Source: Escherichia coli
GTDB lineage: Bacteria; Pseudomonadota; Gammaproteobacteria; Enterobacterales; Enterobacteriaceae
DNA length: 64,000 nucleotides
NCBI RefSeq assembly: GCF_024502345.1
Contig: NZ_JALDNN010000001.1
Strand: one strand, 5' to 3'
This document shows positions 3,782 to 4,327 of the stretch, one piece after another. Positions within the stretch are counted from its first letter, which is position 1, and the number at the start of each line of letters is the position of its first letter. The position numbers and the translations under genes are program-made. Under the pieces are notes generated by a model. That model saw nothing but the letters and a program-made list of their open reading frames with translations. It made no database searches and had not been told where the DNA came from.

Positions 3782-4327
3782 GTAAAAATCCTTCCTCGCA
3801 TAGTGCAGAACGTACAAAACTGTTCATTTTTCAATCACCAGAGATTCACGTCCCGAACGCACAAATAATCGCCTGAAAAAAATCACCTGCTACAATGATG
3901 TTAAAAAATACGTAAATTTGTTGCTGCGTTTTTGTTATGGAATGACAAAAGCGTGTCACAGATCAAGAAAATACTCTCTTTTGGGGGGAGGAATCGACAC
4001 AAATTCCTGTCAAAATAGACCCGTATTTTTTCCATTGCTTCACAACGGACACGATTCAACAACATCTAATTATCCTGGAGTCGTCAAGGATCTGGGGTGA
4101 AAGGGCATTAAATGCTAATGGTGTTGATATTATGTAAACTAATGTGAAGAAACTTTTGTTAAAGTTGACAAAAGGTTATAGAAAGGAGTAAAAGACCACA
4201 TCAATTAGCTGTATAAAAGAATTTCTACAGTGATTGTAAGGTTTTTTTTATTCCTCCCCATGAATCGATGTGGCGTCCATCTGCCGTGAAGAGCAGTGAA
4301 TCTGGCGCTACTTTTGATGAGTAAGCA

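Follow-up and report, generated by a model that had tools for sequence, protein, structure and literature searches.

The nuoA-N control region of Escherichia coli and a conserved hairpin in the nuoA mRNA leader

Overview of the control region

We have analyzed the DNA in front of nuoA in an Escherichia coli genome (assembly GCF_024502345.1, contig NZ_JALDNN010000001.1), using a stretch of 64,000 nucleotides that we call the window and whose numbering is used throughout. The interval studied (3782–4327) is very probably the control region of the nuoA-N operon, which encodes NADH dehydrogenase I (respiratory complex I), with three functional parts: a spacer, upstream regulatory DNA, and an mRNA leader. 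A control region in front of nuo is as such already known; the nuo promoter is a standard example of a single control region on which many global regulators act (ArcA, NarL, FNR, IHF, and Fis, with CpxR, Cra, and Fur added later), and confirming multi-regulator control adds nothing new. What is new is a hairpin in the leader, stem-loop 2 (SL2), which is supported by covariation and is overlapped by an upstream open reading frame (uORF). We found no description of its structure, its conservation, or the uORF overlap in the literature searched; the RNA 3′ ends that lie just past it already stand in a public table.

The first part (3782–3896) is an unconstrained spacer that follows the lrhA terminator. 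The second (3897–4199) is upstream regulatory DNA carrying two ArcA operators, the proximal one with a CpxR-type box, together with near-invariant blocks, and the third (4200–4327) is a leader with a 5′ stem-loop (SL1), a U- and C-rich single strand that holds the uORF start, SL2 with its U-tract, and a weak ribosome-binding site (RBS) that can pair with the RNA RyhB. Regulators on the conserved upstream blocks would modulate the firing of a sigma-70 promoter with starts at 4200/4203: phosphorylated ArcA would repress from its two operators, CpxR probably via the proximal one, and Fis, NarL, and Cra, judging from the literature, would activate from further upstream. The leader would add control after initiation, through RyhB at the start codon and through SL2 and its U-tract, which may act as a partial terminator or as a hairpin that protects against decay. 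The coordinates of all features are collected in Table 1.

Locus and conservation across Enterobacteriaceae

As the preliminary description of this DNA had placed them, lrhA (2759–3697, plus strand) and nuoA (4328–4771, plus strand) flank the interval; nuoB follows nuoA, and alaA lies upstream on the opposite strand. The whole lrhA-nuoA intergenic region is 630 bp (3698–4327), of which the interval studied is the portion 3′ of the lrhA terminator. Of 5426 complete E. coli genomes, 5423 contain a match to a 643-base query over the intergenic region. MG1655 aligns with the window without gaps and has an intergenic region of equal length, with three single-nucleotide differences (3795, 3835, and 4194) over 651 aligned bases; its coordinates are obtained by subtracting the window position from 2409400 (U00096.3) or from 2407422 (U00096.2). 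The interval is AT-rich, as had been noted, with 37.9% GC compared with 49.6% for lrhA, 53.4% for nuoA, and 51.6% for the window.

The left boundary proposed earlier, the intrinsic terminator of lrhA, is real: the fold of 3735–3785 has −27.9 kcal/mol (z = −5.7), and none of 200 shuffles equals it. A simple promoter/terminator scan found no match there because the loop is longer than 8 nt. Since the T-run ends at 3780, the interval begins 2 nt past it.

A scan for LrhA with one genome per species gave 80 Enterobacteriaceae loci, whose genera include Escherichia, Citrobacter, Salmonella, Enterobacter, Kosakonia, Buttiauxella, Cedecea, and Pluralibacter. In all 72 scorable loci nuoA follows lrhA. 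Conservation was expressed as per-position identity to the window in these 72 species, for which 4-fold degenerate sites give reference levels of 0.43 (lrhA) and 0.65 (nuoA). Identity is low over 3782–3896 (Table 1) and rises in blocks further on, to 0.81 at 3897–3910, 0.84 at 3939–3980, 0.80 at 3981–4018, 0.93 at 4045–4062, 0.92 at 4133–4210, 0.82 at 4230–4289, and 0.86 at 4312–4327; the first 115 bp are therefore spacer, and the functional region runs from about 3897 to 4327. This footprint separates some 115 bp of apparently dispensable DNA from sharply bounded near-invariant blocks, two of which (3939–4018 and 4045–4062) have no factor assigned to them in the literature searched.

We also note that the lrhA-nuoA distance is kept at 624–634 bp in 63 of the 72 species despite the roughly 115 bp that lack sequence conservation. 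This constant length suggests a constraint on distance or DNA geometry.

Promoter and transcription starts

The genome-wide table of Kim 2012 (PMC3415461) lists two transcription start sites (TSSs) for nuoA, at NC_000913.2 2403222 (4218 reads, 5′ untranslated region (UTR) of 128 nt) and 2403219 (1744 reads, 5′ UTR of 125 nt); the mean in that table is 108 reads per TSS. The promoter strings given there for nuoA terminate exactly at A4200 and A4203 of the window. These positions lie 6 and 9 nt past a −10 element (5–9 nt is expected for a sigma-70 promoter) that stands 18 bp from its −35 (16–19 bp expected), and genomic SELEX (systematic evolution of ligands by exponential enrichment) with the RpoD holoenzyme reports the same element, ‘TTGACA-18-TAAAAA’, in the nuoA-lrhA spacer (Shimada 2014, PMC3946193). 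Comparison with mapped nuo starts, which the preliminary description had proposed as a check, thus places the major starts behind TTGACA-18-TAAAAG of the window, and the string it had quoted to illustrate the AT-rich DNA, gttgacaaaaggttatagaaagg (4164–4186), includes the −35 hexamer of this promoter. The long leader that it described holds in part: the interval is long and AT-rich, but from the major start only the last 125–128 nt before the nuoA AUG (4200–4327) are transcribed as leader, and what precedes them is upstream DNA.

The last base of the −10 element, position 4194, is G in the window and A in K-12 and nearly all other species sampled. An exact 40-mer with G at this position occurs in 4282 of 5426 complete E. 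coli genomes; G is therefore the common allele within the species, and the K-12 allele is the rarer one.

More than one nuo promoter is implied by curated coordinates. Park 2013 (PMC3798270) gives ArcA site positions relative to two start sites 173–174 bp apart, taken from earlier work, and back-calculation from Table S6 of that study puts them near 4076 and near 4249, with an uncertainty of a few nt. The start near 4076 could use TCTAAT (4065–4070), which has no good −35 partner (position weight matrix (PWM) score −1.2 bits) and is poorly conserved; the one near 4249 fits a weak −10, TAAGGT (4237–4242), with no −35. These would be weaker starts than 4200/4203. RpoH and RpoF holoenzymes, like that of RpoD, each give a SELEX peak in the nuoA-lrhA spacer.

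It is plausible, if somewhat short of probable, that there is instead a single nuo promoter (4200/4203), that the starts placed near 4076 and near 4249 reflect artefacts of primer extension or 5′ ends made by processing (for example by cleavage at the U8 tract), and that ‘multi-promoter’ overstates the case. The poor elements at both curated starts speak for this, as does the table of Kim 2012 (PMC3415461), which has no other TSS between nuoA and lrhA. That table, however, omits every TSS with a signal under 50% of the strongest one and covers one condition (glucose M9, mid-exponential), and weaker promoters would therefore go undetected; the RpoH and RpoF peaks and the two start sites used in the ArcA study also argue against a single promoter. 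The multi-promoter region of the preliminary description accordingly finds indirect backing in the two curated starts and the minor-sigma peaks, and none in the genome-wide TSS table, which shows only 4200/4203.

In the same table a minor TSS at 4346 (plus strand, 40 reads), 18 nt into nuoA, is assigned to nuoB (Kim 2012). It is probably noise or a processed end. Bongaerts et al. in 1995 reportedly described a 560-bp intergenic region here, with fusions to −277 and −899.

Global regulators on the upstream DNA

The best documented regulator is ArcA. Park 2013 (PMC3798270) found two regions by chromatin immunoprecipitation and sequencing (ChIP-seq) and reported that the nuo operon is up 2.7-fold in an arcA mutant. 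The distal predicted site (U00096.2 2403481–2403523) has its ChIP peak at about 3979–3983 of the window and the proximal one (2403271–2403301) at about 4177–4205. The distal site overlaps the conserved blocks 3897–3910 and 3918–3935, and positions 4133–4151 of the proximal site are nearly invariant in the 72 species. An ArcA operator is expected to hold two or more TGTTA-type direct repeats spaced by 11 or 22 bp. An ArcA-like pattern has four matches within 3889–4179 (about 0.4–0.7 are expected per 630 bp), which coincide with the published PWM sites; those at the distal site are at 3889 and 3900.

The proximal ArcA site also contains a CpxR-like box, GTAAA-N5-GTGAA (4134–4148), which overlaps ArcA repeats 2 and 3. 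It differs by one mismatch from the consensus GTAAA-N5-GTAAA, which has three matches in the 64 kb, the chance rate window-wide. CpxR is reported to bind directly and to repress nuo (PMC8831704). Cra binding upstream of nuoA, with activation on acetate, was found by ChIP-exo (bioRxiv 10.1101/080929), and Fur binds a nuoA promoter fragment in an electrophoretic mobility shift assay (PMC10219339). Multi-site binding by Fis (Zhang 2004) is cited in a passage of PMC3688515, and regulation of nuo by NarL and Fnr (Bongaerts 1995) in a passage of PMC1805755. Control by several global regulators, as the preliminary description had it, is thus documented for ArcA, CpxR, Cra, Fur, Fis, NarL, and Fnr, and the contrary case it had named, a lone promoter next to nuoA with nothing bound upstream, does not describe this locus. 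The contacts of Fis, NarL, IHF, Cra, and Fur known from the literature most likely lie in the near-invariant upstream blocks; for 3939–4018 the older literature makes Fis, NarL, or IHF candidates.

Several results weigh against parts of this picture. The consensus patterns used for Cra, NarL, and Fis come from general knowledge, and the scans for these and for CpxR and ArcA were at or near chance window-wide and serve as leads only. No consensus scan is significant alone, so that which factor occupies which conserved block is something we infer; the earlier remark that specific sites cannot be assigned by eye extends to such scans. The FNR pattern TTGAT-N4-ATCAA has no match in 3698–4327 at two mismatches and the IHF pattern WATCAANNNNTTR none there at one mismatch, and weak FNR and IHF effects on nuo were reported in older work. 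A sigma-70 PWM, built from general knowledge, ranks TTGACA-18-TAAAAG as the top site of the interval (8.8 bits, with a weak −10), but 139 of 200 shuffles equal this score and a stock sigma-70 scan gave 0 sites; the promoter assignment therefore rests on experimental data and not on sequence. Lastly, the back-calculated starts near 4076 and 4249 differ from the high-throughput TSSs at 4200/4203.

A conserved hairpin and an overlapping uORF in the mRNA leader

SL2 was obtained as an RNAalifold consensus. Across 67 distinct leaders 99.2% of its alignment cells can pair, compared with 19–65% in slid controls. Four pairs show compensatory changes in 30 cells (9.4 ± 2.3 in shuffles); G-C to A-U and C-G to U-A replacements occur in the Enterobacter/Lelliottia group and recur in at least two further sequences (L071 and L073), and with all 72 species belonging to the Enterobacteriaceae these changes amount to few independent events. 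G-U pairs make up 137 of 798 cells, so that it is the sense RNA, rather than a DNA palindrome, that is constrained. The fold of 4266–4322, which contains SL2, has −16.9 kcal/mol and qualifies as a stable G+C-rich hairpin. Downstream of the stem, at least 5 T are found in the next 8 nt in 56 of the 67 leaders. A stock terminator scan did not report SL2 because of its loop limits. Rfam, searched over 1800–4800 at E ≤ 1, gave three matches far below gathering scores, none of them in 3801–4800 or on the leader; even at this threshold SL2 has no match. For SL1, 69.7% of cells are paired in the alignment (27–48% in slid controls) and in 10 pairs both sides have changed, a pattern that moderately supports a conserved stem-loop at the 5′ end.

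The two RNA 3′ ends just past SL2 are in the Term-seq data of Adams et al. (bioRxiv 10.1101/2020.07.18.207399). One, at U00096.3 2405086, corresponds to 4314 (−14 from the ATG; 282,730 reads), and the other, at 2405082, to 4318 (−10 from the ATG; 475,924 and 124,622 reads). For the end at 2405086 the bicyclomycin comparison gives a Rho score of 0.82, entered as ‘No’, and the nuoA-leader end has an intrinsic terminator score of 11.56, well over the threshold of 3.0; no regulatory element is annotated there, and nuo is absent from the main text (Adams et al., bioRxiv 10.1101/2020.07.18.207399). One figure from the same source counts against a terminator here: RNA-seq coverage, in lysogeny broth (LB) at an optical density (OD) of 0.4, is 259 upstream of the end and 609 downstream, which argues against efficient termination under that condition.

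Candidate roles for SL2 are an attenuator, a stabilizer, or a translational coupling device. We tentatively prefer partial intrinsic termination or attenuation, possibly relieved by ribosomes on the uORF; processing is nearly as likely as partial termination. It is quite possible that SL2 is a protective or structural hairpin and that the ends at 4314 and 4318 are decay intermediates, left when an endonuclease (for example RNase E) cuts in the AU-rich RBS region, perhaps after RyhB pairing, and 3′ exonucleases trim back to SL2. Term-seq is blind to the difference between termination and processing, and the lack of a drop in coverage past the site, the short and interrupted U-tract (UUUUGAU), and the RyhB pairing site directly downstream all agree with decay. 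Against it, the Term-seq authors’ own scoring makes the end intrinsic, the ends fall 3 and 7 nt past the stem as they do in intrinsic termination, and the hairpin with a U-rich tail is retained across genera even where the tail sequence has changed.

The uORF begins in the single-stranded stretch between SL1 and SL2 and runs into the 5′ arm of SL2. Its start codon is present in 62 of the 67 leaders and absent in five. In 31 of the 67 the uORF is 23 codons long and ends in a UGA that overlaps the AUG of nuoA (AUGA); elsewhere 1-nt indels shift the frame, and frame and length vary (9, 14, or 19–28 codons). No Shine-Dalgarno sequence precedes it, and the 67 leaders contain neither the conserved frame nor the regulatory codons of leader-peptide attenuation. 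The literature searched holds no description that we could find of a uORF or leader peptide at nuoA. One doubtful though specific possibility, within the reading of SL2 as a partial terminator, is that ribosomes translating the uORF, which lacks a Shine-Dalgarno sequence and follows the U8 tract, traverse the 5′ arm of SL2 and so would block the hairpin and prevent premature intrinsic termination at 4314/4318; in most genera the UGA/AUG overlap would, in addition, bring ribosomes to the weak start of nuoA. Such a device, conserved across Enterobacteriaceae, would tie complex I synthesis to translational capacity, or to a signal sensed at the uORF, on top of transcriptional control and RyhB.

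A different explanation of the same conservation is that 4248–4311 is kept invariant as DNA, for example as a Cra box around TGAATCGAT, or as NarL or IHF operators downstream of the start, and not as RNA. In its favor, the 22 nt at 4248–4269 are invariant yet unpaired, so that RNA structure does not account for them. A Cra-like core, TGAATCGAT, lies at 4261–4269 and presumably resembles the left half-site of Cra. In addition, Cra was reported by ChIP-exo to bind upstream of nuoA. The full IUPAC pattern for Cra, however, has no match at this core within two mismatches, and a position of +61 is poorly suited to Cra as an activator. In SL2 the many G-U pairs (137 of 798 cells) would correspond to C-A mismatches if read from the opposite strand or as part of a DNA palindrome, and the compensatory changes preserve pairing. 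We consider operators of this kind unlikely to explain the invariant stretch.

RyhB pairing and the question of a small RNA

RyhB control of nuo is cited in a passage of PMC8831704, and pairing of RyhB at the nuoA start codon, where the complement of its core lies (Table 1), is likely. The duplex of the RyhB core with the leader has −23.6 kcal/mol, a value matched by 30 of 500 shuffles; the duplex of full-length RyhB with the leader is uninformative (98 of 300 shuffles as good). In a feature table derived from RIL-seq (in which interacting RNAs are ligated and sequenced), nuoA.5UTR has 1167 chimeric reads with one partner, a target-like position (score −1), and a small RNA (sRNA) probability of 0.005.

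These features bear on whether the leader (4200 to about 4318) could itself be the source of a trans-acting, Hfq-dependent sRNA, with CCUCCCC as its seed and SL2 plus the U-tail as its Hfq module. Its layout is sRNA-like, in that a 5′ stem-loop is followed by a conserved single-stranded stretch, a terminator-like hairpin, and a U-tail, and the Term-seq 3′ ends are very abundant. The RIL-seq features contradict such a product, however: in chimeras nuoA.5UTR is always in the target position, with a single partner and the very low sRNA probability given above. Rfam also has no match. A 5′-UTR-derived sRNA is thus disfavored, and we regard it as very improbable.

We also note a tandem, ATGAGTA-AGCA-ATGAGTA (4317–4334), around the nuoA start. 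Read on the minus strand, it contains two exact heptamers of the NarL type, and it forms an in-frame mini-ORF, AUG AGU AAG CAA UGA, whose end lies on the nuoA AUG. Among the other genera, about half differ in the sequence that precedes the nuoA start and carry AUGCGUAUG at the start.

Other observations on the upstream blocks

A perfect inverted repeat, TGACA-N6-TGTCA (3944–3959), was considered as a conserved operator and rejected, as it is present only in the window and K-12; its left arm is TTAACA in all other sequences inspected, including two other Escherichia. Two further segments, GGGGAGGAAT (3986–3995) and ATTCCTCCCC (4250–4259), are perfect 10-nt complements 255 bp apart, both in near-invariant blocks; about 0.2 such 10-mer pairs are expected by chance in 630 bp. 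As RNA they could pair only in a transcript begun upstream of 3986, by lrhA read-through or from an upstream promoter.

A hidden protein-coding gene can be dismissed, for although reading frames of 60 aa (3918–4100, plus strand) and 54 aa (3901–4065, minus strand) are open in the window, only 2 and 3 of the 73 sequences aligned, respectively, keep them intact, MG1655 has no annotation at either, and short conserved blocks between variable, indel-rich DNA are a non-coding pattern; both were rejected as genes.

The flanks of lrhA

In published Term-seq data the ‘primary’ 3′ end of lrhA is at 3727–3728 (plus strand), 13 nt upstream of the terminator hairpin (3741–3780). The stretches of that table that were examined contain no 3′ end between the end of the nuoA leader and 3727–3728, and none at T8. 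The absent end could reflect processing, or loss of mapping in the hairpin and T-run.

On the other side of lrhA, the alaA-lrhA spacer (about 1840–2758, 920 bp) has SELEX peaks for RpoD and minor-sigma holoenzymes. The lrhA 5′ UTR is 371 nt according to Kim 2012 (TSS near 2388, 11 reads), and ‘orphan’ Term-seq 3′ ends lie within it near 2467 and 2709, one of which precedes the lrhA start by 50 nt. This spacer looks like a second complex control region.

Table 1. Features of the lrhA-nuoA region in window coordinates; minus-signed intervals are relative to the start at 4200
Feature	Position	Strand	Details
lrhA intrinsic terminator	3741–3780	+	12-bp stem 3741–3752/3763–3774, 10-nt loop, T8 3773–3780
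Non-conserved spacer	3782–3896		Mean identity 0.32, under the 4-fold sites of lrhA and nuoA
Distal ArcA site ‘nuoA2’	3899–3941	+	TGTTAAAAAATACGTAAATTTGTTGCTGCGTTTTTGTTATGGA; three direct repeats, 22-bp centre-to-centre; −301 to −259 from TSS 4200
Conserved upstream blocks	3939–4018		ACAAAAGCGTGTCACAGATCAAGAAAATACTC; GGGGGGAGGAATC; AATTCCTGTCAAAATAG; −261 to −182; identity 0.80–0.84, many invariant columns
Conserved block	4045–4062		AACGGACACGATTCAACA; −155 to −138; identity 0.93
TCTAAT, possible −10 for start near 4076	4065–4070	+	5/6 match to TATAAT; inferred start
Fis-like 15-mer, candidate	4103–4117	+	GGGCATTAAATGCTA; −97 to −83; 1 mismatch; partly conserved block; pattern at chance window-wide
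Proximal ArcA site ‘nuoA1’	4121–4151	+	GTGTTGATATTATGTAAACTAATGTGAAGAA; three direct repeats; −79 to −49
Core sigma-70 promoter	4165–4194	+	−35 TTGACA 4165–4170, 18-bp spacer, −10 TAAAAG 4189–4194 (TAAAAA in K-12)
Major starts A4200, A4203	4200–4203	+	Kim 2012 TSS table
SL1, 5′ stem-loop	4202–4236	+	Fold of 4200–4240: −7.8 kcal/mol, z = −2.3
U8 and invariant AUUCCUCCCCAUGAAUCGAU	4242–4269	+	Predicted single-stranded (centroid); near-invariant in 67 distinct leaders; holds uORF start
uORF	4260–4289	+	9 codons plus stop in Escherichia (MNRCGVHLP-stop); UGA in SL2 apical loop; overlaps SL2 5′ arm
SL2	4270–4311	+	Outer helix 4270–4277/4304–4311, inner helix 4281–4284/4293–4296; RNAalifold consensus
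U-tract UUUUGAU	4312–4318	+	Mapped RNA 3′ ends 4314, 4318; +3 and +7 from stem
RyhB-core complement	4323–4330	+	AAGCAAUG; spans nuoA start codon; exact 8-nt match to annotated MG1655 RyhB

Comparison with known systems

The nearest relative is the E. coli K-12 nuoA-N promoter region itself, the subject of Bongaerts et al. 1995 (Mol Microbiol 16:521), Wackwitz et al. 1999, and Zhang et al. 2004, which is the same locus, of equal length, with three single-nucleotide differences and the same flanking genes and regulator set; the −10 is TAAAAG in the window and TAAAAA in K-12, and nothing essential differs. Among other ArcA-controlled respiratory promoters, those of cydA, cyo, and pdhR have several spaced operators (Park 2013, PMC3798270), and nuo likewise has two ArcA regions of three direct repeats each, with a modest 2.7-fold repression. 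It differs from them in that some 260–300 bp separate the distal operator from the major TSS downstream of it, and the predicted sites are offset by 40 bp from the ChIP peak centres. The Pseudomonas putida nuoA-N operon has two promoters before nuoA and four upstream activating Fis sites (PMC6072106); it belongs to another bacterial order and is likened here by description only, and in P. putida the RpoS effect is indirect.

Within the nuo operon there is already one conserved enterobacterial hairpin, the nuoG RNA motif (Rfam RF01748), which is found at 9185–9227 (plus strand) between nuoF and nuoG, with 50.3 bits against a gathering score of 33; nothing else in the 64-kb window reaches the gathering score of an Rfam family. 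SL2 is unrelated to it in sequence and shape.

The closest precedent for SL2 is the Term-seq catalogue of premature 3′ ends and intrinsic terminators in E. coli 5′ UTRs (Adams et al., eLife 2021), in which the nuoA leader is an entry. The coincidence of SL2 and its U-tract with abundant 3′ ends that were tabulated there without comment means that a control step after initiation can be tested directly for complex I. SL2 is in this sense a modest, testable addition and not a surprise, and what the present analysis contributes to the catalogue entry is the covariation support for the hairpin and its overlap with the uORF.

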